Positions 13,456 through 31,424 of a stretch of 64,000 nt of DNA are shown here, piece after piece. The translations under genes and the position numbers were made by a program. Source of the stretch: Halomonas sp. ML-15 (lineage in GTDB: Bacteria; Pseudomonadota; Gammaproteobacteria; Pseudomonadales; Halomonadaceae); the NCBI RefSeq assembly GCF_014779595.1, contig NZ_JACXZT010000009.1:3378-67377 (forward strand), read 5' to 3'. Position 1 is the stretch's first letter. Every line of letters begins with the position of its first letter. The notes beneath the pieces are model-generated. The model did not search any database, was not told the DNA's origin, and saw only the letters and a list, made by a program, of their open reading frames with translations.

Positions 13456-13495
13456 TTGATCCGTAAGTCAAGTAGGTGCTTGAATCCACTCAGCT

Positions 13496-14071: not shown

Positions 14072-14105
14072 GTAACTGCATATAAGTTGGCGAGCTCGGG
14101 GGATA

Positions 14106-14633
14106 TCACCAGGCGATGACCGCGATGAGCATGAGTATCCCGAAGGGAACTGCCACCCAAAGCATCAGAGCTAGCGGTATCAGCGTCGCACAGCGCCTTG
14201 CTCGTGGCCGTTTATCCCCCCAGCGAATGAAGCAAGCACATAGCGGACTGGCGATCAGAGAGGCCGTTACTATAAGATTGGTATCTTGGCCATCATGTAT
14301 TAAAGAGGCTGGAGGAAGCCCGTTTATAGGCCAAAAATCGAGACGCAGTATCATCAGGGCCAAGGCGGCTGCGAAGAGTCCCATGGCAATTTGCCAAGGG
14401 TAGCTGTGGCGTGCGAGATAATGCCGGAAAAGAGCATAGAATGCTCCCGTCATTACTGGGCCTAGGCCAGCAAAAAAATAGACCAAGGGGAAAAATGGAA
14501 TGGCAACAAGCAGTGGAGGAGCCAAAACGGAAATTGGCAAAATGAAGCACCATGGCCCTAATACCGCATAGACGAGAATAGACTCCCACGCCGGTGTAGG
14601 GGGAGTAAGGGAAGGCTCGGGTTCTGTTCGCAT
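14106..14633 (-). CDS. Multi-TM membrane protein, unknown; downstream of the PspA-like gene
   Basis: 4-5 hydrophobic helices. Confidence 0.45.
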   Translation of the reverse strand: MRTEPEPSLTPPTPAWESILVYAVLGPWCFILPISVLAPPLLVAIPFFPLVYFFAGLGPVMTGAFYALFRHYLARHSYPWQIAMGLFAAALALMILRLDFWPINGLPPASLIHDGQDTNLIVTASLIASPLCACFIRWGDKRPRARRCATLIPLALMLWVAVPFGILMLIAVIAW

Positions 14634-14756
14634 GAGGGCCGCGGCAGCCTGTATGGTGGGGTGTTGATGGGTCTATTTATCGCCGGACAGGCGTAGCGCC
14701 CTAACGGTGCCAGGGAAACATCTGGGGCCATCTACCCATGGCCCCAGACATCGGTG

Positions 14757-15461: not shown

Positions 15462-15476
15462 ACCGTAGCGCTCCTG

Positions 15477-15881
15477 TTACTTTAAGAAATCTTCAAATAT
15501 TTCAAGTAGATCAATGGCGTTGTCGGCAAGAGTGGTTAGCTCTTGGGCAATTTCTCGATAGGTTGCCGAAGTGGCCAAGGCCCCATGTACGACATAATGT
15601 TGCTCGATTTTGCCAAGAGCGCTGAGTGGCATGGGCACGCTGAGTCTCAGCATGTTGTCGAGAAGTGTCGGGAGACGCTCCGGGATGACTTCACCCTCAT
15701 CAAAAAGGTAAGTGAAGCATAGAATCTGTGCTTCGTCGGCGGTGAGGTAGACAGGCATCTCCTCTGCGCCCGAAACGGTAACCTGCAGCACGTCTTCTTT
15801 ACCTTCTATAGGCATGACGTGGAAGTGTCGACCTTCATGGGTCGTATCGCTGAGGTGTAATGTGAGGTCTTGCGTATCCAC
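15477..15881 (-). CDS. YjfI-like (DUF2170) cytoplasmic protein, partner of the PspA-family gene
   Basis: Size and position immediately upstream of the PspA-like gene mirror the E. coli yjfI-yjfJ arrangement. Sequence recalled as DUF2170-like with moderate certainty. Confidence 0.55.
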   Translation of the reverse strand: MDTQDLTLHLSDTTHEGRHFHVMPIEGKEDVLQVTVSGAEEMPVYLTADEAQILCFTYLFDEGEVIPERLPTLLDNMLRLSVPMPLSALGKIEQHYVVHGALATSATYREIAQELTTLADNAIDLLEIFEDFLK

Positions 15882-15909
15882 TGCGCTCTCCCTTTCTCGT
15901 GGAATCTGG

Positions 15910-15938
15910 TTGACAGCGTTTCTACAACTAATTAAGTT
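15910..15938 (+). promoter_or_regulatory. Candidate sigma70 promoter for the nfeD-flotillin operon in the divergent intergenic region
   Basis: TTGACA, 17 nt spacer, TAAGTT. Confidence 0.3.
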
Positions 15939-16047
15939 TATCCGGATGAAGAGGGGGTTGGCAACGCATTGGCTACTGAATGTCGTTGCAAGGGGAGGCT
16001 TTGCCAGGGATTCCTGAGGCAGCCATAGTTAAAGCCTGTCTCAAGGG

Positions 16048-16683
16048 ATGATGAGGCAAATGTCGATATTTCTATCTATTATCATATCTTTTCCTACCGT
16101 CGTTTTTACTGTTCTGCTCTGTGTTGCCGTTATCTATTGGCTCGTATCCCTATCGGGAATGGTCGATGGTGATGTACTGGATGGTGATGTTGGAGGCGAT
16201 GGGGCAGTAGACTTCGGTGGTTTGCTCGCCACGCTTGGGCTCCAAGGTGTGCCGTTACCCCTGATGGTGACGCTCCTGTCTTTAACGGGCTGGCTGTTGA
16301 GCTACTTCGCTGACCTGTGGCTGGGCGTTAGTACTGCATCTGGCTGGCTAAGTTGGTTGCTGGGCATCGTTCTCCTGCTTGCATCGCTGGTGGGCGCACT
16401 CTTTGCTACGGCCATTCTCATCCGCCCGCTACGGCCCCTGTTCGTGCGGGCATACCACAAGCCGCAAGAAAAGCAGCTCATTGGCACACTCTGCACGATT
16501 CGTTCGGGCTCGGTTGGTCTGGGCAGTGGAAGTGCCGATGTCCACGTCGATGGCTCGCACTTGATTCTACAGGTAAGAAGCGACTCGGCCTTGGCACGCG
16601 GGGACCAAGCCGTACTGATCGAATACTTGTTGGAAGAGCAGGCCTACTGGGTCGTACCTGAAAAAGAATTCCATACCGGCTAG
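16048..16683 (+). CDS. NfeD-like membrane protein (YqiJ family) with C-terminal OB-fold
   Basis: TM helix, acidic DGDVLDGDVGGDG stretch, further TMs, C-terminal beta-rich segment. Gene directly precedes the flotillin gene. Confidence 0.75.
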   Translation: MMRQMSIFLSIIISFPTVVFTVLLCVAVIYWLVSLSGMVDGDVLDGDVGGDGAVDFGGLLATLGLQGVPLPLMVTLLSLTGWLLSYFADLWLGVSTASGWLSWLLGIVLLLASLVGALFATAILIRPLRPLFVRAYHKPQEKQLIGTLCTIRSGSVGLGSGSADVHVDGSHLILQVRSDSALARGDQAVLIEYLLEEQAYWVVPEKEFHTG

Positions 16684-16706
16684 GCCGGTGTAAACACGCA
16701 GGCAAC

Positions 16707-18662
16707 ATGGAGACTAAAGCAATGGATTTGTCGTGGATCATGCCACTGATTGTGGCAATTGGTGTTATCACCATTACTGTTTTTGCCTTGCTGGCGTTAT
16801 TTCAGGCTTTTTATCGAAAAATCGATCAGGGCCAGGCGCTGATCGTCAATGATCTCTCAATGACACCGAAGGTGTACTTTACCGGTGCCATGGTGTTGCC
16901 GGTCATTCATCGCTCCGAGATCATGAAGATATCGGTCATTACTCTGGAGATGAATCGCACCGGTAAAGAAGGCTTGATCTGCCGCGACAACCTGCGTGCC
17001 GATATCAGCGTGGCCTTCTATCTCAGGGTCAATGCCACGGCAGACGATGTGCTGCGCGTTGCCAAGTCGGTTGGTGTGGGGCGCGCCTCCGACCGTGATG
17101 CGGTAAATGAGCTGTTCAATGCCAAGTTCAGCGAGGCGTTGAAGACCGTCGGCAAGAAGATGGACTTCATGCAGCTCTTCGATGAGCGCCAGCAGTTCCG
17201 TGATGCCATCGTCGAGACCATCGGTCAGGACTTGAATGGCTACATCCTCGAAGACGTGGCGATCGATTATCTCGAGCAGACGCCCAAGAGCTCTTTGGAC
17301 TCCAATAACATTCTGGATTCAGAGGGCATCAAGCGCATCACCGAAATCACGGCCCAGCACAACGTCGAGACCAATCGCCTGGAGCGTGACCAGGAGCTGG
17401 AAATCCAGCGCAAGAACGTGTCTGCCCGTGAAGCGGGGCTGGAGCTGGAGCGTACCCAGGCCGATGCCGAAGCCCGCCAGCGTCGGGAGATCGATAGCCT
17501 GCAGGCGCGCGAGAGCTCGGAAACCGAGCAGATTCGTCAGCAGGAGCGTGCCAAGAGCGAGGCGGCACGCATCAAGACTGACGAAGAGCTGGCGATTGCC
17601 GATGAGAACAAGCAGCGCCAGATCGAGATGGCGGCCAAGGCGCGTGAGCGTGCCGTGCAGATCGAAGAAGTGCGCATTCAACAGGCGCGCGAACTCGAGG
17701 ATGTGAACCGCGAGCGCGCCGTGGAAATCGAGCGCATCGGCATGGAGAAAGCGCTGGAGGGAGAGCGCAAGGAAATCGCCGACATCACCAGCCAGCGTAT
17801 TGCCGTTGAGCGCAGCGTGGCGGAAGAAGAAGAGAATATCAGCGATGTCCGTAACCGTGCCGAAGCCGAACGCCACAAGGTGACTCGTCTGACGGCTGCC
17901 CAGGCGGAAGCGGAAGAGCGCAAGCTGAAAGAGGTGAAGTCGGCCGAGGCGGCTTTCGAGCGCTCCAAGCTCGAAGCCGAGGAAACGGTGATTCGCTCCC
18001 AGGCCGAGCTGGATGCCGCAGAGAAGAAGGCGGCCGCGGAAGAGAAACAGGCGCGTGGGAACCAGGCACTCGCCGCCGCCGATGGCCTGGCGGAGGCGCA
18101 AGTGCTGGAAGCCCGTGCACATGCGCAGCGCAGCGAAGGCTTGGCGCAGGCCGAGGTCAAGACGGCGAATGCCAAGGCCGAGGAAGATACCGGCATGGCC
18201 GAGGTGCGTGTGCTCGAGCAGCGTCTCGAGGCAGAGGCGATGGGCGAAGAGAAGCTGGGCGCTGCCAAGGCGCAAGCCCGCGAAGCCATGGCGTGCGCCG
18301 AGGCGAACGGCCTCGTCGAGAAGCTCAGGGCCTACGACAACATGTCCGAGGAGGCTCGCCACTTCGAAGAGTTCCGTATGAACCTCGAGGTGCACGAGAA
18401 GGAAGTCATGGCTCAGATCGAAGCGCAGCGCATCGGCATGCTGGAGAACGGCAAGGTGATGGCGGCAGCGCTGCAGAATGCCAAGTTCGAGCTGATCGGT
18501 GGCGATGGCGATATCTTCGAGAAGTTCGCAACGGGGCTCGGTTATGGCAAGACCGTACAAGGGGTTCTCGACAAGTCACCGGCACTCCAGGCGGCCCTGA
18601 TGGGGATCGCAAACCGGGCAGTGGGCAGCCAACCAGCGGCCAAGTCTACCGAAACCGCTTAA
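16707..18662 (+). CDS. Flotillin / SPFH (band 7) family protein, YqiK-like, with long Ala/Glu-rich coiled-coil tail
   Basis: N-terminal TM. GAMVLPVIH motif matching YqiK. SPFH core. ~350 aa EA-rich coiled coil. Confidence 0.9.
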   Translation: METKAMDLSWIMPLIVAIGVITITVFALLALFQAFYRKIDQGQALIVNDLSMTPKVYFTGAMVLPVIHRSEIMKISVITLEMNRTGKEGLICRDNLRADISVAFYLRVNATADDVLRVAKSVGVGRASDRDAVNELFNAKFSEALKTVGKKMDFMQLFDERQQFRDAIVETIGQDLNGYILEDVAIDYLEQTPKSSLDSNNILDSEGIKRITEITAQHNVETNRLERDQELEIQRKNVSAREAGLELERTQADAEARQRREIDSLQARESSETEQIRQQERAKSEAARIKTDEELAIADENKQRQIEMAAKARERAVQIEEVRIQQARELEDVNRERAVEIERIGMEKALEGERKEIADITSQRIAVERSVAEEEENISDVRNRAEAERHKVTRLTAAQAEAEERKLKEVKSAEAAFERSKLEAEETVIRSQAELDAAEKKAAAEEKQARGNQALAAADGLAEAQVLEARAHAQRSEGLAQAEVKTANAKAEEDTGMAEVRVLEQRLEAEAMGEEKLGAAKAQAREAMACAEANGLVEKLRAYDNMSEEARHFEEFRMNLEVHEKEVMAQIEAQRIGMLENGKVMAAALQNAKFELIGGDGDIFEKFATGLGYGKTVQGVLDKSPALQAALMGIANRAVGSQPAAKSTETA

Positions 18663-18788
18663 GGCATGGGCGACACCGCGTAGGTGCGTGTCGCCGGGGC
18701 CAGCCTTGCCTGTGTCCCGACCTTTCGCTTCAGGGCCGCCATGTATTGCACATGCTGCGGCCCTTGCCATTGCCAGCCTACTTCCAGG

Positions 18789-21700
18789 ATGAAGACTATG
18801 TCGAAGGGACCAACTCAGGTCGAGAGCATCGTCAGGGAAAGCACTGCATTCGAGACCATTCAGCGGCGCTTGCGATCCCAGGGTGAAAACCTGCACGCCT
18901 CAGTCGATAAGCTGAACGAGGAGCGTGCCGGGGTTTTCGGTAGCAGCAGCATGGCCCTGCTGGGGCGTGCCCGGGTACGTACCGAGAACAATACCGTGGC
19001 ACGCGATATGGTGCGCATCGGTGACAGGATTCTGTTCGGTTTCAATGTGCAGCTGGGTCTGCGCAAGGCGCTCGAAGTCGGCGATATCTTCTCGCTTTAC
19101 TATCTGGAGGATACCGCCGATGGCTTCGAACTTCAGGAGGCTCCGCTAGAGGGTAGCTTCCTGACGGATGAGCGCTTCGTACAAGACTTCCGGGAGCTGC
19201 AGCAGTACTACAGCAATGCCGTGCTGGTGCAGCTGGCTGTGATGAACGGGATGCTGCTGGCGGCTTTCCAGATTGGCGAGAAACTGACCGACGTACGCGT
19301 GTTTCGCTGGGAGCTGTCGGCGGACGGCAGCGTCAGACGTTACATCGACAACCGGGGCGAGCGCGACCTTGTCCTGCCGGAGCGCTTTGCGTTTCCCTGG
19401 AAAGAGGCGGGTCGTGACCATCAGGAGCAGGGGCGCGCGCCGCACCTGAACATTCTCGACACGGTCTTCATCGACAACCTGCGCGGCAACATTACCTTCA
19501 AGATCGAGAACAACACCGGCAGCGGCGAAGGCATCTATGCCGACCCGGTGGAGTCGGACTCCCAGTCGCTGGACGATGCAGCCTTCGAATATGCCGACCT
19601 GGGCGCGATACTGCTGGTCAGGATCCTGCCCTTCAACGAAAGCCAGTGGCGCTATTATCTGTACAACCGCTCCGAGCAGGTGGTGCAGCGGATAGACGAG
19701 ATGGCCGGCTCGGTCGTCGCGCTGCCCGAAAACCACGGGATCATCTTTCCGTCGGGCTACTACCTCAACAGCGGTGAGCTCAGGACCTACGAGGTGCCCG
19801 ATGAGGACCTGCGCTTCAAGCGCATGGTGCGCTCGCCGAACGGCGAAGACGTTCTCTACATCTTCTATGCGCCCCACACGGGCCATGTGGTGCTCTATCG
19901 CTACAACCTGATCCGCAAGCAGACCGACACGCCGATGGTCGGTCATGGCTTCGCGTTGCTGGAGAATGGCCATCTGGCGATTTTCCACTCCGAGGACGAG
20001 CCGACCCTGGTGCACCCGATCCAGGTGTGGGACACGCCGTTCATGTCGGAGAACTTCCATGCCCAGGATGCCGTTCGCAACGACACCCCGCTGGGTCGAA
20101 TCGGTAACCCCGAGCTGGTGCGCGGGATTGCCGAGCTGAACAGCATCGTTCAACTGGCGGGGGAGCAGCAGGCTTCCGAGCGACATTACAATGCCATCAT
20201 CCGGCGGGTGGACCGCGCGCTCAATCAGTTCCACTGGCTGGGCGAGGCCACCTTCGAGGCGGTGCACGATCTGCTGGTGCAGCTCAAGCATACCGCTGAA
20301 CTGATGCTCGACGAGTATGAGAAGGTCCAGGCGATCCGGGGGCAGACGGCAGAGGCCCTGGATAGCATCGGTGGGCAGCAGGACACGCTGCTACGGGAAC
20401 TCAAGCCGAGCAGCTGGAAAACGCCGGATCAATTCGTATCGCATCTCAAGGCGCTGCGCGATCACCGCGGCCGCCTGCTGGCGCTGCGGGATCGTCGCTA
20501 TCTCGATGAGGAGCGTCTGCAGGAGCTGGAGCAGGCGTTGGACAAGGCCGAACGGACCCTGACCGGCCAGACCTTCGACTTTCTTGCGACGCCCGAAGCG
20601 CTGGACGGCTATCGGGCGACCCTGGCTGCATTGGCAGAGCGCGTGAAGGAGGCCGAAACGCGGGATCAACTGGGCAAATGCGTCGGCGAGTATCGCGAGC
20701 TGACCGCCGGCCTGGACATGATACAGGCCATGCTGTCGTCCATGTCCGGCGACGATGCCACCCAGCAGACCCGTATTACCGAGAACATCTCGAGCATTTA
20801 CGCCACCATCAACCAGCAGCGCTCCGAGGCGGAGATCCGCATGCGCGAGCAGGGCAGTGCCGAAGCACAGGCCCAGTTCGCCGCTCAGATCCGGCTGTTC
20901 GAGCAGAGCCTGGCCAATGGCGTGGGGGCCCTGCGTGAGCCCGACGACTGCGACCAGTTGATGACACGGATGCTGGATCAACTGCAGGAGCTGGAGGGGC
21001 AGTTCGGCGAGTTCGACGAATTCCTGAGCATGATCCTGGAGCAGCGCGAGAGTGCCCACGAGAGTATCGAGGCGCGCCGCCAGCAGCTGCAGGACGAGCG
21101 CCAGCGCCGCGTCAACACCCTCACCGATGCCACCAAGCGCATTCTGCAGAACGTGGAGCGGCGCACCGAGCGCTTCGAGACCCTCGAGGAGCTGCACAGC
21201 TTTTTTGCCTCGGATGCGATGGTGGCCAAGGTGCGCAGCATGGCAGACGAGCTGCGTGAGATGGGCGCCAACCTCGAAGCCGATGACCTGGCCGGGCGCT
21301 TGCGCTCGACCCAGGACGCCGCCCTGCGCAGTGTCCGTGATCGGGCCGATATCTATGAATCCGGTGGCAATGTCATCCGCCTGGGGCCGCGCCATCGTTT
21401 CAGTGTCAATCAGCAGCATCTGGACCTGACGCTGGTGCCGCGGGATGACAGTATCATGCTGCATCTCACCGGTACGCAGTTCTATGCGCCGCTGAAGGAT
21501 GAGCGCCTGGAGGCGCTACGCCCCTACTGGTCGATCACCCTGCCATCCGAGACCGACGAGGTCTATCGGGCCGAGTACCTGGCTTACCTGATCATGGAGG
21601 CGCTGGCGCGTCCCGGAGCCGAGCGGATCAACGTGGAGGACCAGGCGGAACTGGAGCGCTACATCAGCCGCTTTGCCTCGCCGCGCTACCGCGAAGGCTA

Positions 21701-23735
21701 CGAAAAGGGCATTCATGACCACGATGCCGCCCGAATCGTGCGGACTCTTTGGCCGGCACGCCAGAGCGCCGGACTGCTCGGCTATGGCCCCTTGCCGCGG
21801 GCCATCGCGATGCTCTACTGGGCGCAATGCCGCCAGGACGAAAGCGCGTCCCGCAACCTGCGCGCGCGCTGCCTGTCGGCCGGCATGCTGTGCCGCATCA
21901 TGGGCAATGAAGACCTGCTGCTGGCGCTGATCGAAGAGGTCGCTCCACTGCTGGATGCCTTCGTCAGCCAGTGTCGGCTTGATGGGTCGGCAAGCCAGCG
22001 CAGGAGTGCCGCGGAATACCTCGTGCGTCAGCTTGCCGAGGAGGGTGAGAGCTTCCCCGTTACCCAATACGCCGCCGAGCTGGTCGACAGCTTTACTGCC
22101 GCGATGAAGCAGCAGGGGCATTACCGCCATTTCGAGGAGTCGTTGGCAGTGGTGGCAGGCCAGCCTGGGCCACGCTGGACGATCACGTCGCACTGGCTGC
22201 AGGCTCACGCGGAAAACGCGGGCAAGGAGGCGCTGCTGCACTACCTCCCCGAAGCGATCGCCCTGTTGAATACGGCGGATCGTCTGGCCACGGCAACTCA
22301 CAACGTCGAGCTCTCGTTTCGTGTCGAAGGGTTGCTCGGCCAGCACCCGAGGCTGTCGCAGCAGTCCCTGGCACTGCAGCTGGACGACTTCCACGAGCGC
22401 CTGCGCCATCACCAGCAGGAAGTGATACGCGGCTGGTCGGAACTTCAGGAGCGTCGCCAGACCATTCTACGCGAGCAGCGTGAGCGGCTTCGTCTCGAGG
22501 AGTTCATGCCCAAGCCGTTGAACTCCTTCGTGCGCAACAAGCTGATCACCGAAAGCTATCTGCCGATCATCGGCGACAACCTGGCCAAGCAGATGGGCAC
22601 CGTTGGCGATGCGCGTCGAACCGACAACAGCGGCCTGCTGATGATGATCTCGCCGCCGGGCTACGGCAAGACCACCCTGATGGAGTACGTCGCCAATCGC
22701 CTGGGGTTGATCTTCATGAAGATCAACTGCCCGAGCCTCGGCCACGATGTCACCTCGCTGGACCCGGAAATGGCCGCCCACTCCACCGCAAGGGCCGAGC
22801 TGGTAAAGCTCAACCTCGCTCTGGAGATGGGCAACAACGTGATGCTGTATCTGGACGATATCCAGCACACCCACCCGGAGTTCCTGCAGAAGTTCATCTC
22901 CCTGTGTGACGGCAGCCGGCGCATCGACGGTGTATGGGAGGGGCGAAACAAGACCTACGACATGCGTGGCAAGCGGTTCTGCATTGCCATGGCGGGCAAC
23001 CCCTATACCGAGAGCGGGGAGGCCTTCAAGGTGCCGGACATGCTGGCCAACCGGGCCGACGTGTATAACCTCGGCGATGTGCTGAGCGGGATGGAAGGCG
23101 TTTTTGCCCTCTCCTATATCGAGAATGCCATCAGCGCCAATACCGTGCTGGCGCCGTTGGCCACCCGTGGGTTGGACGACTTCTACCGCTTCGCCGATCT
23201 GGCGGCGGGCCGTGAGGTACCGAGCACCGACTTCGAGCACGACTACAGCGCAGCCGAGCGGGAGGAGATCGTGGCGGTGTTGAAGCACATGTTCAAGGTG
23301 CGTGAGGTGGTGTTGAGCGTCAATCAGCAGTACATCGCCTCGAGTGCCCAGGCAGATGCCTACCGGACCGAGCCGAGCTTCCGCCTGCAGGGCAGTTACC
23401 GCAATATGAGCCGCCTCGCCGAGAAGATATCGCCGATCCTGTCCGACGAAGAGCTCGAAGCGATTCTCGATGACCACTACCTCGGTGAAGCTCAGCTACT
23501 GACCCAGGGGGCGGAAGAGAACCTGCTCAAGCTCAAGGAGCTTCGCGGCACCTTGAGCGCCGAGGAGGCGCAGCGCTGGGAGTCCATCAAGCGTGAGTTC
23601 CGTCGCCGTCAACTGACCGGTGGCGACGAGGAAACCGGTGCCCTGGTGGTGCGTCAGCTTAGTCTCATCGCCGAAGGCGTGGGTAACCTCGGCGCCTCGA
23701 TGCCGACCGGGGAGAGTTACCGCGAGCCGAGTTGA
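18789..23735 (+). CDS. Giant (~1645 aa) protein. N-terminal ~500 aa is an unknown beta-rich region, the middle ~700 aa is alpha-helical/coiled-coil, and the C-terminus is a MoxR/McrB-clade AAA+ ATPase
   Basis: Walker A ISPPGYGKTT. Walker B VMLYLDDIQ. Sensor-1-like CIAMAGNPYTE…DMLANRAD, the hhhhA(T/A)xNP pattern of helix-2-insert AAA+. Start at 18789 or 18798 (AGGA RBS). Confidence 0.8.
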   Translation: MKTMSKGPTQVESIVRESTAFETIQRRLRSQGENLHASVDKLNEERAGVFGSSSMALLGRARVRTENNTVARDMVRIGDRILFGFNVQLGLRKALEVGDIFSLYYLEDTADGFELQEAPLEGSFLTDERFVQDFRELQQYYSNAVLVQLAVMNGMLLAAFQIGEKLTDVRVFRWELSADGSVRRYIDNRGERDLVLPERFAFPWKEAGRDHQEQGRAPHLNILDTVFIDNLRGNITFKIENNTGSGEGIYADPVESDSQSLDDAAFEYADLGAILLVRILPFNESQWRYYLYNRSEQVVQRIDEMAGSVVALPENHGIIFPSGYYLNSGELRTYEVPDEDLRFKRMVRSPNGEDVLYIFYAPHTGHVVLYRYNLIRKQTDTPMVGHGFALLENGHLAIFHSEDEPTLVHPIQVWDTPFMSENFHAQDAVRNDTPLGRIGNPELVRGIAELNSIVQLAGEQQASERHYNAIIRRVDRALNQFHWLGEATFEAVHDLLVQLKHTAELMLDEYEKVQAIRGQTAEALDSIGGQQDTLLRELKPSSWKTPDQFVSHLKALRDHRGRLLALRDRRYLDEERLQELEQALDKAERTLTGQTFDFLATPEALDGYRATLAALAERVKEAETRDQLGKCVGEYRELTAGLDMIQAMLSSMSGDDATQQTRITENISSIYATINQQRSEAEIRMREQGSAEAQAQFAAQIRLFEQSLANGVGALREPDDCDQLMTRMLDQLQELEGQFGEFDEFLSMILEQRESAHESIEARRQQLQDERQRRVNTLTDATKRILQNVERRTERFETLEELHSFFASDAMVAKVRSMADELREMGANLEADDLAGRLRSTQDAALRSVRDRADIYESGGNVIRLGPRHRFSVNQQHLDLTLVPRDDSIMLHLTGTQFYAPLKDERLEALRPYWSITLPSETDEVYRAEYLAYLIMEALARPGAERINVEDQAELERYISRFASPRYREGYEKGIHDHDAARIVRTLWPARQSAGLLGYGPLPRAIAMLYWAQCRQDESASRNLRARCLSAGMLCRIMGNEDLLLALIEEVAPLLDAFVSQCRLDGSASQRRSAAEYLVRQLAEEGESFPVTQYAAELVDSFTAAMKQQGHYRHFEESLAVVAGQPGPRWTITSHWLQAHAENAGKEALLHYLPEAIALLNTADRLATATHNVELSFRVEGLLGQHPRLSQQSLALQLDDFHERLRHHQQEVIRGWSELQERRQTILREQRERLRLEEFMPKPLNSFVRNKLITESYLPIIGDNLAKQMGTVGDARRTDNSGLLMMISPPGYGKTTLMEYVANRLGLIFMKINCPSLGHDVTSLDPEMAAHSTARAELVKLNLALEMGNNVMLYLDDIQHTHPEFLQKFISLCDGSRRIDGVWEGRNKTYDMRGKRFCIAMAGNPYTESGEAFKVPDMLANRADVYNLGDVLSGMEGVFALSYIENAISANTVLAPLATRGLDDFYRFADLAAGREVPSTDFEHDYSAAEREEIVAVLKHMFKVREVVLSVNQQYIASSAQADAYRTEPSFRLQGSYRNMSRLAEKISPILSDEELEAILDDHYLGEAQLLTQGAEENLLKLKELRGTLSAEEAQRWESIKREFRRRQLTGGDEETGALVVRQLSLIAEGVGNLGASMPTGESYREPS

Positions 23736-23757
23736 GACATCTCTGCAGGATGAATAT

Positions 23758-23791
23758 GCACTTGGGCGGAAGAGGGCGAACGCCCAAGTGC
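23758..23791 (+). terminator. Stem-loop (11 bp stem) immediately after the giant gene; no U-tract
   Basis: gcacttgggcg…cgcccaagtgc. Confidence 0.3.
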
Positions 23792-23839
23792 GTAACCCGG
23801 CTTGGCAGCAGAGGTATGGTTTGATAACCCTTAAGGTGG

Positions 23840-24580
23840 GTGATGATGTTTGGAAAACTTGTTTTTGGGCCGTTCTTTTTGCTGTTTTCATCAAGCAAGA
23901 GTTTGTTTAAGAGTGTGTCGGTTCCGGCTGTCATCTACTTTCTTGTGAATATGGAAATGCAAGGTGTTCTAGATTTTTTCTGGGCGTCTGGGTGGCTGAT
24001 CGGAGGAGTTGCATATATTGTCTTGGAGTGCGTTCTTCTATTGCTGATGACGTTGCTTGGTGTCAATGCAACGCGTGTGGTTCTGCTAGGTGGGAGCTTG
24101 TCAGCGGTTGGCGTGAGATGGACTAAGAGGGAAAGTGCCTATTTTCTCTATACTCTTTTGTTCATGCTTCCTTTGTATCTTATGACACTGCCTGAGATCT
24201 TTTTGAACAAGGCTCCTCTTGAGGTGAGGTTTGCCTATAGCCTGTTGTATCTAGTTTTGATGATAGGGTGGGTTTGGGTTTTTTCCAGGCTGTTGTTGGT
24301 CTTTCCAAGTATTGCGGTCGATGGCCGCATGAGTCTCAAAGACTCATGGCGGCTAACGAGAAAGTATCAGTGGGTGTTTTTGCTCTCGATTCTGTGTGTA
24401 GGTGGAATGTTTGTTGTTATGGGGGGTATGTTGCAGCTTATTCCCTTTGGCCATATTGCTGTTCATGCATTTCATACTCTGTTGGCGTTGGTCGTCTCAT
24501 TGATGCTGGCGGCTTATTATGCCGAGGTCGTGGTAAAGGAAATTCGGCCGGAGCATGATCGTTTCGCGACGGAGGAGTAG
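23840..24580 (+). CDS. Multi-TM membrane protein, unknown (low-GC islet)
   Basis: 6+ hydrophobic helices. AT-rich codon usage. Confidence 0.55.
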   Translation: MMMFGKLVFGPFFLLFSSSKSLFKSVSVPAVIYFLVNMEMQGVLDFFWASGWLIGGVAYIVLECVLLLLMTLLGVNATRVVLLGGSLSAVGVRWTKRESAYFLYTLLFMLPLYLMTLPEIFLNKAPLEVRFAYSLLYLVLMIGWVWVFSRLLLVFPSIAVDGRMSLKDSWRLTRKYQWVFLLSILCVGGMFVVMGGMLQLIPFGHIAVHAFHTLLALVVSLMLAAYYAEVVVKEIRPEHDRFATEE

Positions 24581-24683
24581 ATGCCTGATAGCTCGTGATT
24601 TAACCTTCTCTGAGCTAAGAATCATAGTGCCTATGAGGTCATTGGATTTTTTGGTGAAATAAATTCAAGCAATTCCGGGGTGT

Positions 24684-25925
24684 TTGTTGGATATCAGAGT
24701 AATAGTCTTGCTTGTCTTGTTTTTTAATTTATTCTTGTTGTCTTCCGTGCTGAAGCGCTTTTTTGATGCGAGAAGAGTCAGGGAAAGCATGCTAGATGGC
24801 AGTTCATGCCGGCCGTTGACTGAAAAAGAAAAGACAATTGCGACTCTAGGGCTGACCTTTGCTGACCACAGTTATCAGGGGGGCGGTGCATATAGAATCA
24901 CAGGGCCTTTGAGTGAATATAAGATTAGGCATAGAGGGATCGTTACTGAGGTCAGGTATAAGGCTGGCGGTGTGGAAATTATTCCTGCATTTGATGCGTT
25001 AGATTTTATTAAGGAAAATAGCGTAATTGATTTGGTCGATGTGGGTAAGGGAAAGATGGGGGTGATCAAAGTCGATGATGTGTTTGATTTAGAGGAGGCC
25101 GTGGAAAGGAAAGAGCTTCAGTTTCCAGTGAGATTTCTAGAAGGCACGCTAGGGGTGTTGTATGGATCGTCAGGCGATAGAAAGGCAGAAAGTATAGAAG
25201 TTATCAGTGTGGCCGATTGTGAAGATAAGGGCGTTTATGACGACCGAGTCGATTCCGAAAAATTTTACTTCTCGTCACTTCATTTACTAGCAGTGTTTGG
25301 ATTTCTGCTGCTGACTGTCCTGGGGTTACAAATAAGCATTTTGTCTCTTTTGTTCTTGATTCCGGTTCCTTTCTTTCTGTTTTTTTCCTTTTCTTTTTTC
25401 AGCATGGGTTTTTGTAAGGGTGAAGGAGAAGGTTATAGGATATTTAAAGTTAAGGCTGTTATGCATCGTGGTGGCTTAGGGTATGTCGTTGATTTAGGTC
25501 CCTTGGAAATGGTTACGGTCCCTCTTCCTTGGCGCGAATTTTTAGTAAGTGATGCTCACCCAAAGGAGTACGAAATAGTAGTCTCGCCATATGGTGGGGC
25601 TAGCTTACATAGTGCGCAAGGTCTATCAGTCGAGACAATGCCTGAGCCAAGCAAAAATTGGATCCCCTTTGCGGGTCCGGCTTGTGTCTCAGCATTAGCG
25701 CTGATCGCTGGGTTTTTTATGCTTAACCCATCCGACTTTTTTGTTATGCTTTCTGCTGGTGAGCTTTTTCAGCCGCGAAGCATGGCTGTTGCTTTTTTCT
25801 TCTTTATCGCGGGGGTGGTTTTTTTAATTAGTGCGCCTCTCTATTTTTATCGTTATTACAGATATCGTGCTGAGTTTGACGAGTGTGTTGCTACGGTACG
25901 CTCTGCTAAGGAAAAAAGCGGGTAA
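24684..25925 (+). CDS. Membrane protein with large soluble domain between TM1 and later TMs, unknown
   Basis: N-terminal TM, ~200 aa hydrophilic domain, then 4-5 TMs. Confidence 0.55.
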   Translation: MLDIRVIVLLVLFFNLFLLSSVLKRFFDARRVRESMLDGSSCRPLTEKEKTIATLGLTFADHSYQGGGAYRITGPLSEYKIRHRGIVTEVRYKAGGVEIIPAFDALDFIKENSVIDLVDVGKGKMGVIKVDDVFDLEEAVERKELQFPVRFLEGTLGVLYGSSGDRKAESIEVISVADCEDKGVYDDRVDSEKFYFSSLHLLAVFGFLLLTVLGLQISILSLLFLIPVPFFLFFSFSFFSMGFCKGEGEGYRIFKVKAVMHRGGLGYVVDLGPLEMVTVPLPWREFLVSDAHPKEYEIVVSPYGGASLHSAQGLSVETMPEPSKNWIPFAGPACVSALALIAGFFMLNPSDFFVMLSAGELFQPRSMAVAFFFFIAGVVFLISAPLYFYRYYRYRAEFDECVATVRSAKEKSG

Positions 25926-26070
25926 CTTTTTATCAAAAAAATGGGCAAGTGTTAATGGAGTGATAGCAATGGGACATGGCAATACGATACTATCTGGGGC
26001 AGGTGTTGCGCTTAGTCACAGAGGCTGCCGTGAGTAAAGCAACTTAATTTAAGAAAAACGAGGTTATGTA

Positions 26071-26478
26071 ATGCTGTACATGTTGGGTTTCTTACTGGGT
26101 TTCTTACTGGGTTTCTTAGGCTTTCTTTTTTTTACACCGAAAATCATTAAGTCGGTCATTGCGCAGAAAGAAATCTACAGGGAATTCAATCAGAGCCAAT
26201 TACTCCCGTTTTTTTTGCTTTTGCTCCCGGCTGGTCCTCTGGCGCTAGGGATTTTTCCTTATATAATAGGTTGGGTGCCCGCGGCCGCTGTTGCTGCCGC
26301 ATGCTATCTGCCTGCTTTACTGCTATCTCGCCGGCATATTGCCGCCTTTGATCACTCTGGTACGAGTCGGACAGTTGGTGCGCTTGACTCAGCACATATG
26401 GCGTTCGGTGGTGCTTTGGCTGGGTTAATCTATGTGGGAGTATTCGTAACTTTATCAGCAACTATAGGTAGACTGTGA
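26071..26478 (+). CDS. Small membrane protein with GFLL tandem repeat
   Basis: 3-4 TM helices. Contains the 12-bp tandem repeat. Confidence 0.4.
   Translation: MLYMLGFLLGFLLGFLGFLFFTPKIIKSVIAQKEIYREFNQSQLLPFFLLLLPAGPLALGIFPYIIGWVPAAAVAAACYLPALLLSRRHIAAFDHSGTSRTVGALDSAHMAFGGALAGLIYVGVFVTLSATIGRL
26088..26123 (+). repeat. 12-bp tandem repeat (ggtttcttactg x ~2.7) encoding GFLLGFLLGFLG
   Basis: Direct reading of sequence. Confidence 0.6.
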
Positions 26479-26610
26479 GTATATTTACATTACGTCAAAC
26501 TGAACATGCGAAACATCCGTGAACTGGTTACGCCCTCAAGCGGTATGGCCGCTGAAACAATGCTTTATAAAAAGAATCCATAAAATAAAGAGCCTCCAGC
26601 CTCTTTTTCA

Positions 26611-27732
26611 TTACTCAGCAGGCTGACATATACTCTGCAAAATTTCCCAATCCTGTTGGGATAGCGATGGCTTGGTGGTTGGCAAAGCAGAATGATTACG
26701 GACGAGCTCAGCCCGGACAGTGCTCTCTGGGTGTGTATGAAGGTATGAAGGGAGCCAGTACTCTTCATCGTCCTGCTTCGCAAGCCGATCAAAGAAATTG
26801 GCAAAGGGTTCGCTGCTGATGCGGGCCGTATTGAGAAGTTCCAGAGCAAACTCATCGGCTTGAAGCTCTGCTGTATGTGTATAATTGGCACGCAGTAGAG
26901 CTTCTCCCAGTAAGGTAATGGTAGCGCCTCCGGTTATATCGCCTAGAATCATTGCCAAAATTCCAGCTGAACCTGCTGAGCGCAGGGCTAATCTGGTAGG
27001 ATCTCGTGCTTCGACATGTCCTATTTCATGGGCAATCACGCCAGCAATCTCGTCAGGCGATTCAGCAGATTCAATGAGCCCGCGCAGTAACACAATATGC
27101 CCCCTTGGGGCAGCAAAGGCATTGACCATGGGGTGGTCAATAACTTGTACATGAATATCGTATTCTGTTGGATGACTTTCCACCAGTCTAATTACCAGCC
27201 TATCGAGTACGGCCGTCTCTTTCACGCCACTACAGGCTTTGGCCCCTCCTAGCATGTTTTTCATCTGGGAAACAACAGCGCGACCGACAGCAGCTTCGCT
27301 GTCTCGAGGAATATAAGTAGCTAGGCGGTCTGCGAGTGCCGGTATAATGACAAAGAGTAGAGCGAGCACTGATACTGTGGCAGCACCCGCCAGAGTCACG
27401 AGTTGACGCTTTATGCCAGGCCTGCTTTCTCGTGCATCCAGTTTGGGTGCGGCTTTCTGCAACCAGAGAATGAGCGCTGCATCGGTTATGATCAGTCTGG
27501 CTGGGTCATGTGGCGTTTCATCCTCGCTCTGTGTGTATTGCGTCAGCATGAGCCCCTCGCCTTGGTAAGATCGCTTGCGTAGGGCGTCTAGCGGCCAGCT
27601 AATATACTGGCCAGCCTCAGTTTCAATATGCAAGGCATCCCGCCCGGCTGATAGCCGGACGAGATGCTTTCTGGATGTTTCACCGTCGAAGAAAAGCCCT
27701 TGGGTGCTCGCTTCGGAGGAAGCATGCTTCAC
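26611..27732 (-). CDS. M48-family zinc metallopeptidase with N-terminal domain and TM anchor
   Basis: HEIGH zinc-binding motif within AHEIGHVEARD. Downstream E. TM helix ~res 110-135. 4-nt overlap with the upstream DUF898 gene. Confidence 0.85.
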   Translation of the reverse strand: MKHASSEASTQGLFFDGETSRKHLVRLSAGRDALHIETEAGQYISWPLDALRKRSYQGEGLMLTQYTQSEDETPHDPARLIITDAALILWLQKAAPKLDARESRPGIKRQLVTLAGAATVSVLALLFVIIPALADRLATYIPRDSEAAVGRAVVSQMKNMLGGAKACSGVKETAVLDRLVIRLVESHPTEYDIHVQVIDHPMVNAFAAPRGHIVLLRGLIESAESPDEIAGVIAHEIGHVEARDPTRLALRSAGSAGILAMILGDITGGATITLLGEALLRANYTHTAELQADEFALELLNTARISSEPFANFFDRLAKQDDEEYWLPSYLHTHPESTVRAELVRNHSALPTTKPSLSQQDWEILQSICQPAE

Positions 27733-28919
27733 ACTGTTGCTCCAACGTCCAGAACATCAGCAAAGCCTTCTGCATCCGTGCCCAGATCGGGGGCTCGTTG
27801 ATTGATCGATTCCAATGAGTCGAGGTGCAGCACAGTCGTGTGCTGTACAATATGAGAAATGACAGGTTGTACCACCATGACAAGCATCAAAGCGCCAATT
27901 AATATAAACGCCGAGATGTAGGCTAGGGGGGGTAGCATTATACTAAGCATTCCTAATGTGGCAGTGCTAATGTCAGATTGCCATATCAAGGCACCTATAG
28001 GTCCTGCCAGTAGCAAAATGCAGAGTAAGGTGATAATGCTGGCACCAAGTGACCCAAGTATTACCATTGTGATGATAGATGAGGGGGTCAGGTTGTTGGA
28101 GAAATGAACCTCGTCGCCAAGAACTTTGGTATTTGTCAGGTATTGAAAAGATTTTACTTTGTAATACATTACGCCGAGTGACCACCAGATGGTCGCGATG
28201 ACGAAGACAATTGTACCCAAGGTAGGCTTTGATAGGGCCATGGCAAGGCCTGATAGTAATGCTAGGCCGAGGCCGATGAAAATGTGTCGCATGGCAGAGT
28301 AGAGTTGGGTCCAGGAGCCACTTTGATGGAATTTTACCTGCCCGTACCAAGTCCTATCCGTCTGGTATTTCTCCAACCAATACGTCTGGCGAGGTAACAG
28401 TAGTCCGAGGCTGATCAAGGTTAGCAGACCATGCCCGATCACTCGGACACTATATCCCCAAGCCCCCGGCTCCATGCCGAATCGTATGCCGCGGAACCGA
28501 GTGCGGGCCATTTTATAACGTCGTGCACGATATTGTGCGAAGAAGATGAGAGGGGCAAGAAATACGAGGTTGAGATAGAAAGAGGCTGTCATGATAATAA
28601 AGTCAACCTCACTGCTTACTCTACGAAACATGCTAAGGTTGAAGAAGAAAAGTAGTAGCTGCACTATGGACAGATAGACTGCCACCACAATAAGAGCGAT
28701 GAAAAAACCTTTTAGCTTTTCCAGCCCTGTACCCGTGTACTCAAACCGGTCGCCGTTAACACTAATGGATGACAAAAGAAAACGTCTTATTCTTGTTTTT
28801 GCCCAAAAGCGATATATTCCTATTGTAAGAACTGTCAACAGGCTTGTGACTAGTGAGATTTTAAGAAGCTTGCCCGTTTGGCCGTCATAACCAGCGGTGA
28901 TTTTTTCCGTAGAGCTCAT
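27729..28919 (-). CDS. DUF898 (YjgN-like) polytopic inner-membrane protein
   Basis: N-terminal LLTVLTIGIYRFWAKTRIRRF and internal repeat RFRGIRFGM…LLTLISLGLLLP, typical of the duplicated DUF898 architecture. Confidence 0.8.
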   Translation of the reverse strand: MSSTEKITAGYDGQTGKLLKISLVTSLLTVLTIGIYRFWAKTRIRRFLLSSISVNGDRFEYTGTGLEKLKGFFIALIVVAVYLSIVQLLLFFFNLSMFRRVSSEVDFIIMTASFYLNLVFLAPLIFFAQYRARRYKMARTRFRGIRFGMEPGAWGYSVRVIGHGLLTLISLGLLLPRQTYWLEKYQTDRTWYGQVKFHQSGSWTQLYSAMRHIFIGLGLALLSGLAMALSKPTLGTIVFVIATIWWSLGVMYYKVKSFQYLTNTKVLGDEVHFSNNLTPSSIITMVILGSLGASIITLLCILLLAGPIGALIWQSDISTATLGMLSIMLPPLAYISAFILIGALMLVMVVQPVISHIVQHTTVLHLDSLESINQRAPDLGTDAEGFADVLDVGATV

Positions 28920-29503
28920 GCCTTATTCCTTTTGGCGTATGTTGCGAGTCACAGTATGTTGGTATTTATCGCTCCTGCGCTTGCAGGGCTTTCTACTTAG
29001 AGTGCGCTGCCCCAAGGGCTCATGGCAGAAAATGCAAGGTAGAGGAAAGTCGCTTTATCGTGACGTTCGATACTGTCAGGATTTATAAAACAAGGCAGGT
29101 GATGTTACCACTGACAGGTGGGGGCAGCTATGGCAGATTTCTGATCATACTGTAAGCCATTTCTTACATTCGCGTATTTCCCCGGACCCATGTCGAGTTG
29201 TAATCAATGTCAAAAATGAGGTTGAGTTATGAGAATGGCGCCATCGATACTTGACAGGTGGCAGGTCAATACTGCACTTTAATTTATAGCGTATCTCCTG
29301 GGTTAATAGAATAACTGTAGTCCTTTGGATCACCTGATAGAAGCCGCCTTAGTGACACAGGCTCTGCGCTTCGCAGTGCAGGGGGTGAGTTTCTATAGTG
29401 GCGGTTTGCCACTACCTTCACCTGGGCTACTTCATTGGCACGATGCTGCTGCTTAGCGGAGTAGCGCTGCTCTTCTGGTATTTTTAACTAGAGAAAGCAT
29501 TTT

Positions 29504-29944
29504 ATGTTGATGGCTAAAATTGCCCTTGCTCTTGTAGGCGTTATTGTGGTCGGCCTGGCTTTGGAGGTTGCTAGGATGGAGTGGGGAGTTCCGATAACCA
29601 TGGTTGATTTGATATTTTTTCCGCTATTGGTGGTAACGTTTTTTAATGTGTTGAAAGGCCTTTTTAGAAAAATATATTCAAAATCACCCACTACGGAAGG
29701 GGAGATAAAAAAATTATCGATCAGTCTTTTATTTTTCTCAACTATAGCCATTCCGTTTGGTGCTTGGAGTGTTTGGCATGTGTGGTCAGGTACAATGGGG
29801 GTCTTCGACTATTTTCCCGGAGGGAGAGGGGCCGCTCATGGTTATACTCTCATCTCTCTGGGTTTTATGTTTTTAATAATGTGGGTGCGTGTTTTGTTTG
29901 TAATGGCTAGCAATCTGGTCGCCCATAAAAGGAATGACGATTAG
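29504..29944 (+). CDS. Small membrane protein (4 TM), unknown; last gene of the low-GC islet
   Basis: Hydrophobic helices. AT-rich. Confidence 0.45.
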   Translation: MLMAKIALALVGVIVVGLALEVARMEWGVPITMVDLIFFPLLVVTFFNVLKGLFRKIYSKSPTTEGEIKKLSISLLFFSTIAIPFGAWSVWHVWSGTMGVFDYFPGGRGAAHGYTLISLGFMFLIMWVRVLFVMASNLVAHKRNDD

Positions 29945-30068
29945 CTTCAAGGCGACGACTCCCCATTGCTTTTCGTATCCAAGTTGGCAAGTGAGCGCGT
30001 TCACATCAGAGCGCAAGAATGATTATGTCAGGCCTGTTTCTGCCATCGTGGCATGGCAGACAGATCGC

Positions 30069-31424
30069 TCAGGCACGGCCCACGGGCTCTCCTTCCGGCT
30101 GCGGATGGGCGCGCAACAGCCACGAGGCGGCGGCGACGCCGGCCAGGCCGAAGAGTGCGCCGGGCAGGGCGCCTAGCGCCAGGCTGACGATGATACCGCC
30201 CAGGAGTGCCGTGCCGCCGACGAGAATGGCGGGTGTGCCGGTGGCCGAGATAACGCCGCGCTTGCGGCCCATCTCGAAGGTCACCACCGCGACCATGACC
30301 GGGGTGGCGGACACGATGCATAGCAGGATCCACCACAGGCGGCCGAGCCAGAAGCCCGCCTCGCCCGGTATGCCGGCGTCGATGGGCAGGCCGAGGCGCT
30401 CGCCCAGCCAGGCCGCCGGCAGCTCGGCGAGCTTGTGCCAGAGATAGAGCGGCATGCCCAGGGCGCCCAGGATCGTCACTACCCTGTCGATGCGGCGGCG
30501 CTCCAGCAGGCGGCGTACGGGGCCTTCACAGGTCAGTACGACACCGATCTGGACCCACATCACCCCCACCAGGGCCAGGGTTGGCGGAAGCAGGTTGCTG
30601 GGCACGCCAAACTCGCCATCGACCATGGCCACGGGATAGCCCGAGGCTACCGCCACGGCCAGCCACAGCAGGCCGAGCAGCAGCAGGGCCAGGCCGGCGC
30701 CCAGGCCAGAGAAGCGGCCGCGCTTCCAGGCGATACCGAGCTGCTGCGGCAGCAGCCAGACGATGATGGCGTTGAGCCAGCCGATGCCGCCGCCGTTGTC
30801 GGTGACCAGCGTGCCGAGCTCCAGCAGCTCGACGGGCGCCGTGATGCCGGCACGCAGTAGATCGACCGCGGCGGCGATCAGCAGCAGCCCCGCCACGGCC
30901 TTGAGCCCCCAGCGATTATCGGCCCATACGCAGAGCGGCAGCAGCGCCTGTACCCCAAGCAGCATCATCAGGAACCAGAGGTGCACGGTCAGCGAGTGGT
31001 TCAGCGGGCCGAGCAGGCGGCCGCCGGTGTAGGTGGCGATCACCACGAAAGCCACCAGCACCGCCAGATAGGTGACGGTGGGGCGCGCCAGGCCCAGCGC
31101 CCGGCCAGCCCACCAGTGAAGCTGCCGGTGGCCCTGCTTCAGCCGCCGCTGGGCGCCGTCAGCACTCACTGCGGCGGAGACGAACACGAACAGCGGCACG
31201 ACCTGTAGCACCCAGGTGAGCACGCCGGCCCCCGTCCACACCATCAGCAGGTGGTCGGTGGTGGTCATCAGGCCGTTCTCGAGCCGCGGCAGGGTGGCGA
31301 TCCAGTGGCCGAATACCACCACCAGCAGGGCGCCGGCGCGAAGCGCGTCGGGATAGCGGTCGCGGCTCGTCTGGCTGTCCGTGTCGCTGGGCTGTGGTGT
31401 GTCGCTTGGCTGTGAAGAGTTCAA
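30069..31424 (-). CDS. Acyltransferase family 3 membrane protein
   Basis: N-terminal R..D.LRAGALLVVVFGHW motif of acyltransferase_3. ~10 TM helices. Confidence 0.75.
   Translation of the reverse strand: MNSSQPSDTPQPSDTDSQTSRDRYPDALRAGALLVVVFGHWIATLPRLENGLMTTTDHLLMVWTGAGVLTWVLQVVPLFVFVSAAVSADGAQRRLKQGHRQLHWWAGRALGLARPTVTYLAVLVAFVVIATYTGGRLLGPLNHSLTVHLWFLMMLLGVQALLPLCVWADNRWGLKAVAGLLLIAAAVDLLRAGITAPVELLELGTLVTDNGGGIGWLNAIIVWLLPQQLGIAWKRGRFSGLGAGLALLLLGLLWLAVAVASGYPVAMVDGEFGVPSNLLPPTLALVGVMWVQIGVVLTCEGPVRRLLERRRIDRVVTILGALGMPLYLWHKLAELPAAWLGERLGLPIDAGIPGEAGFWLGRLWWILLCIVSATPVMVAVVTFEMGRKRGVISATGTPAILVGGTALLGGIIVSLALGALPGALFGLAGVAAASWLLRAHPQPEGEPVGRA

Follow-up and report, generated by a model that had tools for sequence, protein, structure and literature searches.

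What is a 6.2-kb stretch of low GC (guanine-plus-cytosine) content doing directly behind a giant AAA+ gene in Halomonas sp. ML-15, and are the membrane proteins encoded in it connected with that gene? The stretch (23.74-29.95 kb) lies in a 64,000-nucleotide (nt) piece of contig NZ_JACXZT010000009.1 (positions 3,378 to 67,377 of the forward strand), which we call the window and whose numbering we use unless a relative's locus is named. It holds four open reading frames (ORFs A to D) on the plus strand and, on the minus strand, an operon for a DUF898 (YjgN-family) membrane protein and an M48 zinc metallopeptidase. An earlier note on this DNA had taken it for one islet with its borders at 23.74 and 29.95 kb, and had raised the possibility that its membrane proteins are substrates or accessories of a neighboring "flotillin"/AAA+ system. 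Our comparison with related genomes leads to a different verdict: the region represents ordinary island mosaicism in an array associated with type VI secretion system (T6SS) effectors, with the DUF898-M48 operon inserted or retained inside it. The account as a whole—a composite region, an immunity-type array, the mechanism proposed below for the DUF898-M48 pair, and an accidental proximity to the AAA+ genes—is one that we consider probable.

A composite low-GC region beside an AAA+ module

The closest available species, going by the GST orthologues of the right flank (85%), are H. salipaludis (locus L087) and Franzmannia qiaohouensis (locus L088), in both of which the gene of a VasX_N (MIX_II) type VI effector of 1111-1158 amino acids (aa) and, after it, a series of genes lacking Pfam domains lie to the left of GST. 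Comparison of the window with L087 by blastn and tblastn gave four collinear matches: (i) 4268-5610 with L087 4819-6159 (blastn); (ii) 24494-25958 with L087 6541-8007 (blastn, 94% nt identity); (iii) 29324-30261 with L087 8112-9018; and (iv) GST, the same neighbor in ML-15 and H. salipaludis. ORFs B and D are common to both genomes at the same site, and so is the 3' end of ORF A: in H. salipaludis, its final ~87 nt survive in front of the ORF B homologue. Homology also crosses the supposed right boundary, into a decayed 3' acyltransferase remnant in L087. The corresponding Acyl_transf_3 gene of ML-15 (30069-31424, minus strand; Pfam E 6.4e-20), which lies at the right edge of the low-GC array, is intact, with a GC of 0.70 and core-like codon usage, and has decayed at the same site in H. 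salipaludis (L087 8848-9017) and in Billgrantia montanilacus (L089 9335-9944).

Two blocks interrupt this collinearity. One, of 18.9 kb (5611-24493), is present in ML-15, whereas the matching array segments of H. salipaludis have no counterpart of it between them (blastn); the other, a 3.37-kb block (25958-29323) delimited by breakpoint comparison, is specific to ML-15 and comprises ORF C, the M48 gene, and the DUF898 gene with its upstream region. The 3.37-kb block has sharp breakpoints, at which direct sequence comparison found no target-site duplication; in H. salipaludis, ~105 nt of unrelated sequence take its place. The junction comparison that the earlier note had proposed thus divides its islet: the inner block has sharp junctions and is the only ML-15-specific part, and the outer parts and the right junction are shared with H. 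salipaludis. This alignment of sequences shows that the 6.2-kb low-GC stretch is composite and that its outer parts are the distal end of an old hypervariable low-GC array. On the same evidence, the GC step at 29.95 kb is a junction common to H. salipaludis; and because the array is shared with H. salipaludis and the blocks are extra, the step at 23.74 kb divides two accessory segments of different origin, the AAA+ module with its core-like GC and the low-GC array. The divergent intergenic region between the DUF898 gene and ORF D (28920-29503) itself spans a breakpoint, 28920-29323 being ML-15-specific and 29324-29503 common to H. salipaludis upstream of ORF D. A gene with TerB and DnaJ domains (DjlA-like) lies between array and GST in both relatives (L087 9163-9921, L088 9167-9925), and none is found at the ML-15 site.

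The 3.37-kb block could instead be ancestral to the array and have been deleted in H. salipaludis. Its GC of 0.48 is near that of the array (0.42-0.46), neither a target-site duplication nor a mobility gene marks an insertion, and there is a single informative comparator; against a deletion, the listed top 120 relatives of DUF898 name no other member of the Halomonadaceae, and the ~105 nt of unrelated sequence in H. salipaludis leave no clean junction. We regard an ancestral block as somewhat unlikely. An attempt to name a donor by GC was abandoned, since the contig of the closest homologue (0.70) departs from the value found here (0.49).

In its composition, the stretch is as the earlier note had described it. 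GC per 500-nt window falls from 0.62 (23250-23749) to 0.46 (23750-24249) at the left edge, directly after the stop codon of the giant gene, stays at 0.41-0.54 throughout to 29999, and recovers from 0.43 to 0.69 across 29.75-30.25 kb. GC at third codon positions (GC3) is 0.42-0.53 in the six low-GC genes compared to 0.78-0.89 in core genes. With an index of the codon adaptation type, referenced to 26 core genes of the window, ORFs A to D and the M48 and DUF898 genes have z values of -8.5 to -10.3, compared to -0.8 for the giant AAA+ gene and +0.2 for the acyltransferase gene, so that the core-like codon usage by which the islet was to be refuted is not what we observe. The dinucleotide signature distance at 24-30 kb is 139-167 compared to 28-74 in the core, and both kinds of deviation are equally extreme at 0-6 kb. 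The stretch from 23.74 to 29.95 kb is compositionally foreign and shares its atypical composition with genomic islands.

Other features of a classical integrase-mediated island are missing. Within the regions scanned, and as the earlier note had stated, we found no tRNA at the stretch, no Pfam match to an integrase or transposase within 1-31 kb of the window, and no significant flanking or terminal direct repeat at either the 23.74-29.95 kb stretch or the 3.37-kb block; nor is the stretch a unit missing from relatives, given that ORFs B and D and the right junction occur in H. salipaludis. Candidate origins were rejected on similar grounds: blastn of the entire stretch against 72,556 plasmids gave no match, PHROGs yielded generic M48 matches only, and PADLOC gave only marginal matches to defense systems (PycTM for ORF D; IetA and LmuB for the giant protein). 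An Rfam scan of 23.4-30.3 kb at E <= 1 gave no match, and a promoter and terminator scan, which showed no excess over shuffled expectation, was left unused.

The neighboring PspA/DUF3686-AAA module is widely conserved and core-like in composition. Using the C terminus of the giant protein as the query and one genome per species, we collected 80 module loci; in most of the ~65 that were sufficiently long, the order w16048 (four transmembrane [TM] segments), 651-aa N-anchored protein, DUF3686/DUF7902/AAA giant gene (window 14757-23735) is kept. The idea that a single, recently acquired islet sits between the giant gene and the core and serves this system could draw on the abrupt GC shift past the giant gene's stop, and on the fact that every product is membrane-bound while the neighboring module holds PspA/IM30, a membrane-stress protein. 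Co-occurrence, the comparison that the earlier note had suggested, was run both ways and gave zero shared loci: DUF898, M48, or ORFs A to D lay within 10 kb in none of the 80 module loci (0/80), and a homologue of any window protein other than the pair, those of the AAA+ operon included, lay within 6 kb in none of the 80 metagenomic DUF898 loci (0/80). Because both counts are zero, a functional association, including the role as substrates or accessories, is unsupported. In addition, H. salipaludis carries ORFs B and D together with the right junction at a site with no AAA+ module; the DUF898-M48 pair is divergently oriented, with its own 585-nt upstream region; and the 651-aa protein that had been called a flotillin has neither an SPFH/Band_7 Pfam match nor a PDB sequence match. 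We consider a single islet serving the AAA+ system highly improbable; there is no detectable link, and the proximity of the AAA+ operon to the DUF898-M48 pair is probably accidental.

Several observations concern the module and the block around it. Module carriers are gammaproteobacteria, including Marinobacter, Cellvibrio, Halomonas/Vreelandella, and Hahella. Upstream of the three ordered genes, ~50 of the ~65 loci have PspA, in many cases accompanied by DUF2170, and many encode a Zn-ribbon protein downstream; the seven closest Halomonas/Vreelandella loci have no PspA-DUF2170 within the flank, and in ML-15 the Zn-ribbon gene (13496-14071) is upstream instead. Besides the module (PspA-DUF2170, the 651-aa protein, and the DUF3686-AAA giant gene), the 18.9-kb block contains most of ORF A and genes for a DUF2628 protein, a MORN protein, and a BamB-like propeller. 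At 5639-14633 lie the genes for the DUF2628 protein, a domainless 782-aa protein, the MORN-repeat protein (627 aa), and the BamB-like PQQ beta-propeller (370 aa), together with several low-GC membrane ORFs (12188-13455 and 14106-14633), all of them with atypical codon usage (z -4 to -9). A stem-loop (23755-23794, plus strand) with 14-nt arms and a 12-nt loop, an inverted repeat 20 nt past the stop of the giant gene, might serve to stabilize or terminate RNA of the AAA+ operon; no T-run follows its stem.

The DUF898-M48 operon

The first gene of the pair (27729-28919, minus strand) encodes the 396-aa DUF898 protein (PF05987), and the second (26611-27732, minus strand) a 373-aa protein composed of DUF7092, a single TM segment, and an M48 zinc metallopeptidase domain. 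The 4-nt overlap noticed earlier between them is seen directly: the GTG start of the M48 gene overlies the TGA stop of the DUF898 gene (GTGA), and a GGAG lies 7 nt upstream of that GTG. An automatic gene call chose a downstream ATG, giving 312 aa; we take the long GTG start to be right, because DUF7092 spans residues 10-55 of the longer protein and the partners of 375-376 aa in other loci abut or overlap DUF898. In a metagenomic sample of 80 DUF898 loci, a partner could be scored in the 58 with at least 1150 nt downstream, and a codirectional M48 homologue directly 3' of DUF898 was present in every one of them (58/58), as it was in the compared loci L083 to L086 and L090. The distance from DUF898 stop to M48 start ranges from -22 to +18 nt across the 58 loci, most of which are from Rhodobacterales. 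Strict in this sample, DUF898 followed by DUF7092-M48 is a fixed, tightly conserved, uncharacterised operon, and the recurrence that the earlier note had mentioned is borne out. The DUF898 protein is 100% identical to one of Halomonas sp. ML-15, and exact-match searches with DUF898 and ribA led to a Logan contig of that strain alone, which covers the region. The closest homologue beyond it reaches only 56% identity; among the listed top 120, those with a name are almost all Rhodobacterales (43-49% identity), with no other Halomonas or other member of the Halomonadaceae among them. In contigs of the Roseovarius type, parC and a P450 gene flank the pair, with tuf and ribosomal genes adjacent. 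It is practically absent from plasmids, where tblastn with M48 gave two weak matches (31-33% identity).

The M48 protein is assigned to its family by motifs, so that its protease activity is putative. Pfam identifies Peptidase_M48 (E 1.2e-24) and the N-terminal DUF7092 (E 7.8e-07); the zinc site (H235-E236-x-x-H239 and E289 of the E..AD motif) is kept across the 58 partner sequences, as are H334-P335 of a His-Pro (HP) plug and R340. The plug of BepA is formed by H246-P247, with Arg R252 six residues later (PMC7950410). Hydropathy shows one strong TM helix (109-141) with a basic flank on its N-terminal side and, because this flank precedes the helix, DUF7092 is predicted to be cytoplasmic and the M48 domain periplasmic, on an N-in helix anchor. 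C167 and C369, conserved in at least 95% of the 58 partners, suggest a structural disulfide in the periplasmic domain, and the nearest solved structures, PDB 3c37 and BepA, belong to the soluble periplasmic class.

The M48 protein most resembles BepA, LoiP, and YcaL of Escherichia coli, with which it shares the M48 type and the residues of the active site and its plug, namely HExxH, the ligand Glu, and a His-Pro followed by Arg six positions on (PMC7950410). BepA and LoiP are also its top NCBIfam matches, the domain is likewise predicted to be periplasmic, and the enzyme, like BepA, probably stays latent for as long as the plug is in place (bioRxiv 10.64898/2026.07.01.735768). Yet it falls far under the equivalog cutoffs (66.2 bits compared to 570 for BepA, NF052400, in a match covering the protease domain only; 62 compared to 365 for LoiP), has neither TPR nor lipobox, and ends at residue 373, so that identity with BepA was rejected. 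The combination of an N-in TM anchor, a cytoplasmic DUF7092, and a DUF898 gene upstream is found in none of the E. coli enzymes. Identity with HtpX was rejected as well (at most 28 bits against cutoffs of 245-422; one clear TM helix, not four).

DUF898 spans residues 11-298 of its protein (165.8 bits against a cutoff of 28, E 1.8e-48), which both hydropathy and an AlphaFold2 monomer model (predicted local distance difference test, pLDDT, 89.9; predicted template modeling score, pTM, 0.85) describe as polytopic, with a repeated hairpin/helix unit. In the model, two short and three long helical hairpins make up the whole membrane part and alternate with five beta-hairpins; the loops on the periplasmic side have no more than 3-11 residues. 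Because the membrane part contains helical hairpins only, the beta-hairpins, the termini, and the invariant Arg/Lys residues share one face of the model, which we take to be cytoplasmic. No relative of the fold was found in the PDB. Outside the Pfam match lies an acidic C-terminal tail, QRA.D.GADAEGFADALDVG (residues 374-396; window 27729-27800), which is near-invariant in 83 homologues that are otherwise 42-56% identical. YjgN of E. coli belongs to the same Pfam family and has the same N-terminal repeat motif, but is 25% identical over 146 residues and is encoded by a lone gene, flanked by yjgM and valS, that has no protease partner; its tail differs, being loosely similar (GF..hydrophobic), and it is the sole unpaired comparator for the tail.

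From these features we infer a mechanism in which DUF898 would act as a polytopic inner-membrane scaffold that presents its five beta-hairpins, termini, and acidic tail to the cytoplasm, and in which the M48 partner would be anchored beside it by the N-in helix, with DUF7092 inside and a latent HP-plug protease of the BepA/LoiP type in the periplasm. Translational coupling would yield both proteins in fixed stoichiometry, and the pair could then act as a single membrane-tethered protease for envelope quality control or processing, which DUF898 would position or gate through contacts with DUF7092 and the helix. Such gating is suggested by analogy with BepA, whose unlocking requires docking at the place where it acts (bioRxiv 10.64898/2026.07.01.735768). 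The earlier note had proposed that M48 processes its DUF898 partner. On the predicted topology this is unlikely: the non-membrane parts of DUF898 are nearly all cytoplasmic and the M48 domain is periplasmic, and because almost nothing of DUF898 is exposed to the periplasm, it is probably not the substrate.

The VasX-associated array and ORFs A to D

The array of which the low-GC stretch forms the distal end begins at the left end of the window (1-5610). An orphan fragment of a VasX-type effector C terminus (227-628, plus strand) recurs there in a frameshifted copy (1557-1957) and a partial one (2886-3040); these copies are 87-97% identical to one another and, compared to the final ~135 aa of the VasX_N effector from H. 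salipaludis, 37-45% identical. Each precedes a membrane-protein gene. Two such genes, the paralogues w642 (642-1367) and w1971 (1971-2705), both on the plus strand, have three to four TM segments and are of immunity type; a third copy of them ends at about position 40. w642 and w1971 are 60% identical to each other and 40-53% identical to two genes directly 3' of VasX_N in L087, with GC3 values of 0.46-0.47 and codon z values of -8.3 and -9.0. Two further paralogues, w3052 and w4279 (3052-5610, plus strand), are shared with L087 and L088 at 83-92% identity; they are distantly related to each other (25-30%) and give weak DUF6708 matches. F. qiaohouensis has three tandem w3052/w4279 sets (L088 2900-8990; 50-92% identity), some of them apparently split or frameshifted in gene calls.

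Immunity proteins against the pore-forming toxins of the VasX/BTH_I2691 type have been described as small and hydrophobic, located in the inner membrane, with a gene that immediately follows that of the toxin (PMC13133200). Because the C-terminal fragments each precede a membrane protein, as in VasX loci, we read the array as a series of orphan toxin-CT/immunity cassettes, the repeated toxin C terminus followed by a small hydrophobic protein being the layout of orphan T6SS cassettes. Compared to known VasX/TsiV2 and Tke5/Tki5 (BTH_I2691, MIX_II) loci, the likenesses are that the array of the relatives, L087 and L088, is headed by a VasX_N effector, of which the ML-15 window shows C-terminal fragments only, and that effector-CT repeats and small membrane proteins occur together with low GC and a quick turnover between species (PMC13133200, PMC3857813). 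In contrast to such loci, ORFs A to D lie far from an effector, and large unrelated blocks break up the array. We infer that w642 and w1971, and possibly ORFs A and D, confer immunity, as cognate or orphan proteins, to membrane-depolarizing toxins of the VasX family; for ORFs A to D, an immunity role is suggested by position and hydrophobicity only.

The setting of the DUF898-M48 operon in this array raises the question of whether the pair was captured for a protease-based, non-cognate immunity that cleaves membrane-inserting T6SS toxins. Its predicted catalytic domain would sit in the periplasm at the inner membrane, the target of VasX-type toxins (PMC13133200). However, in Rhodobacterales the pair stands among housekeeping genes (parC ... 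tuf and those of the ribosome) and T6SS genes are absent, PADLOC gives no match for it, and its place in the array could reflect a permissive insertion site; we think such a capture very unlikely. A more elaborate form is similarly a long shot: an obligate two-protein transmembrane protease, in which the beta-domain and tail of DUF898 would dock DUF7092 and control plug release, kept in ML-15 as non-cognate immunity because it degrades incoming membrane-inserting toxins of the VasX type.

ORFs A to D are all multi-TM by hydropathy and mutually unrelated, as the earlier note had said of the three at 23840-26478; A, C, and D are small and belong to no known family. ORF A (23840-24580, plus strand; 244-246 aa, ~5-6 TM) has no match in Pfam, NCBIfam, PADLOC, or PHROG. 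ORF C (26071-26478, plus strand), a 135-aa ORFan with four TM segments and no homologue in the loci compared, contains the 12-bp in-frame tandem repeat reported earlier (26084-26118; 2.9 perfect copies, giving GFLL repeats). ORF D (29504-29944, plus strand; 146 aa, four TM), the last gene of the low-GC array, is 63% identical in amino acids to L087 8347-8715, which occupies the same place beside the acyltransferase remnant. PADLOC matched it to PycTM, the Pycsar transmembrane effector (E 8.5e-4, 17.7 bits), a match that is probably noise from hydrophobic composition.

ORF B (24684-25925, plus strand; 413 aa) consists of a TM segment, a 166-aa domain, a TM hairpin, an 81-aa domain, and a TM pair. 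It is 93% identical in amino acids and 94% in nucleotides to L087 6730-7971, and its start position is kept as TTG, GTG, and ATG in three homologues; with 28 synonymous and 24 nonsynonymous codon differences from H. salipaludis (rough ratio of nonsynonymous to synonymous rates, dN/dS, ~0.3), the sequences indicate that it is under constraint. ORFs A to D might all be decaying, nonfunctional remnants, with DUF898-M48 alone functional: they have few or no homologues, ORF A is truncated in H. salipaludis, and the adjacent acyltransferase gene decays in relatives. Such decay is unlikely, given that ORF B is intact in two species under this constraint, that ORF D is intact and collinear, and that all four have clean multi-TM hydropathy.

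Only two relatives of ORF B were present among 1.84 billion representatives, which makes it nearly an ORFan; a distant relative, P0243, matches Pfam IgaA (E 1.2e-13). ORF B itself has no direct Pfam IgaA (PF07095) match; in hhalign, its profile aligned collinearly with E. coli IgaA (95.9%) with P0243 included, and the match disappeared (0.5%) when P0243 was left out. ORF B shares with IgaA (YrfF), the inner-membrane regulator of the Rcs phosphorelay, the TM order and two domains of cytoplasmic size (~19 and 9 kDa, compared to 21 and 11 kDa in IgaA), and lacks the 295-residue periplasmic sensor domain of that protein (PMC5978795), having ~4 residues between its last two hydrophobic segments. 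An RxLTxxE motif stands at the matching position. We tentatively describe ORF B as a truncated "mini-IgaA" that resembles the IgaA N terminus. The Rcs system is, to our knowledge, confined to enterobacteria, and an IgaA-like protein of Halomonas would therefore have another partner. Since basic residues follow the first TM segment and the architecture matches IgaA, the large domain, which the earlier note had given as ~200 aa and extracytoplasmic, is probably cytoplasmic.

Weighing and meaning of the mosaic

Several points weigh against the account given here. The two block differences could each be an insertion in ML-15 or a deletion in H. salipaludis, there being one close comparator; the array genes ORF B and ORF D, which do occupy the same site in H. 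salipaludis, are both missing from F. qiaohouensis. Neither a full-length VasX effector nor T6SS core genes were seen in the ML-15 window, which begins inside the array, and no similarity of ORFs A to D to TsiV2, Tki5, or any other proven immunity protein was found, no dedicated test having been made. For ORFs A and C, the loci and libraries searched, which did not include the large protein databases, contained no relatives, and the link between ORF B and IgaA is transitive, running only via P0243. As for the DUF898-M48 pair, its topology was derived from the positive-inside rule, the conserved cysteine pair, and the monomer model of DUF898, a single-sequence structure model of M48 having been discarded (pLDDT 41), and our literature search found no functional study of DUF898, DUF7092, or YjgN, in line with the earlier note's description of the pair as functionally uncharacterised.

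The supposed association of an islet with an AAA+ system is thereby replaced by the ordinary mosaic turnover of a T6SS effector-associated array, which removes a misleading functional link. Within this array, the possible "mini-IgaA" ORF B would be a minor curiosity concerning IgaA-like membrane modules beyond the enterobacteria. The lead to keep is the succession of DUF898 and DUF7092-M48, with its strict pairing, its coupling, and a protease that has the full latency apparatus of the BepA type, together with a DUF898 partner whose near-invariant tail accompanies a confidently modeled fold that lacks a solved relative. Through this pair, the function of the YjgN family and the control of an HP-plug M48 protease by a membrane partner become tractable questions. 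If true, the plug-release model would amount to an "inside-out" licensing of a periplasmic protease and, in ML-15, to a protease-based non-cognate immunity.

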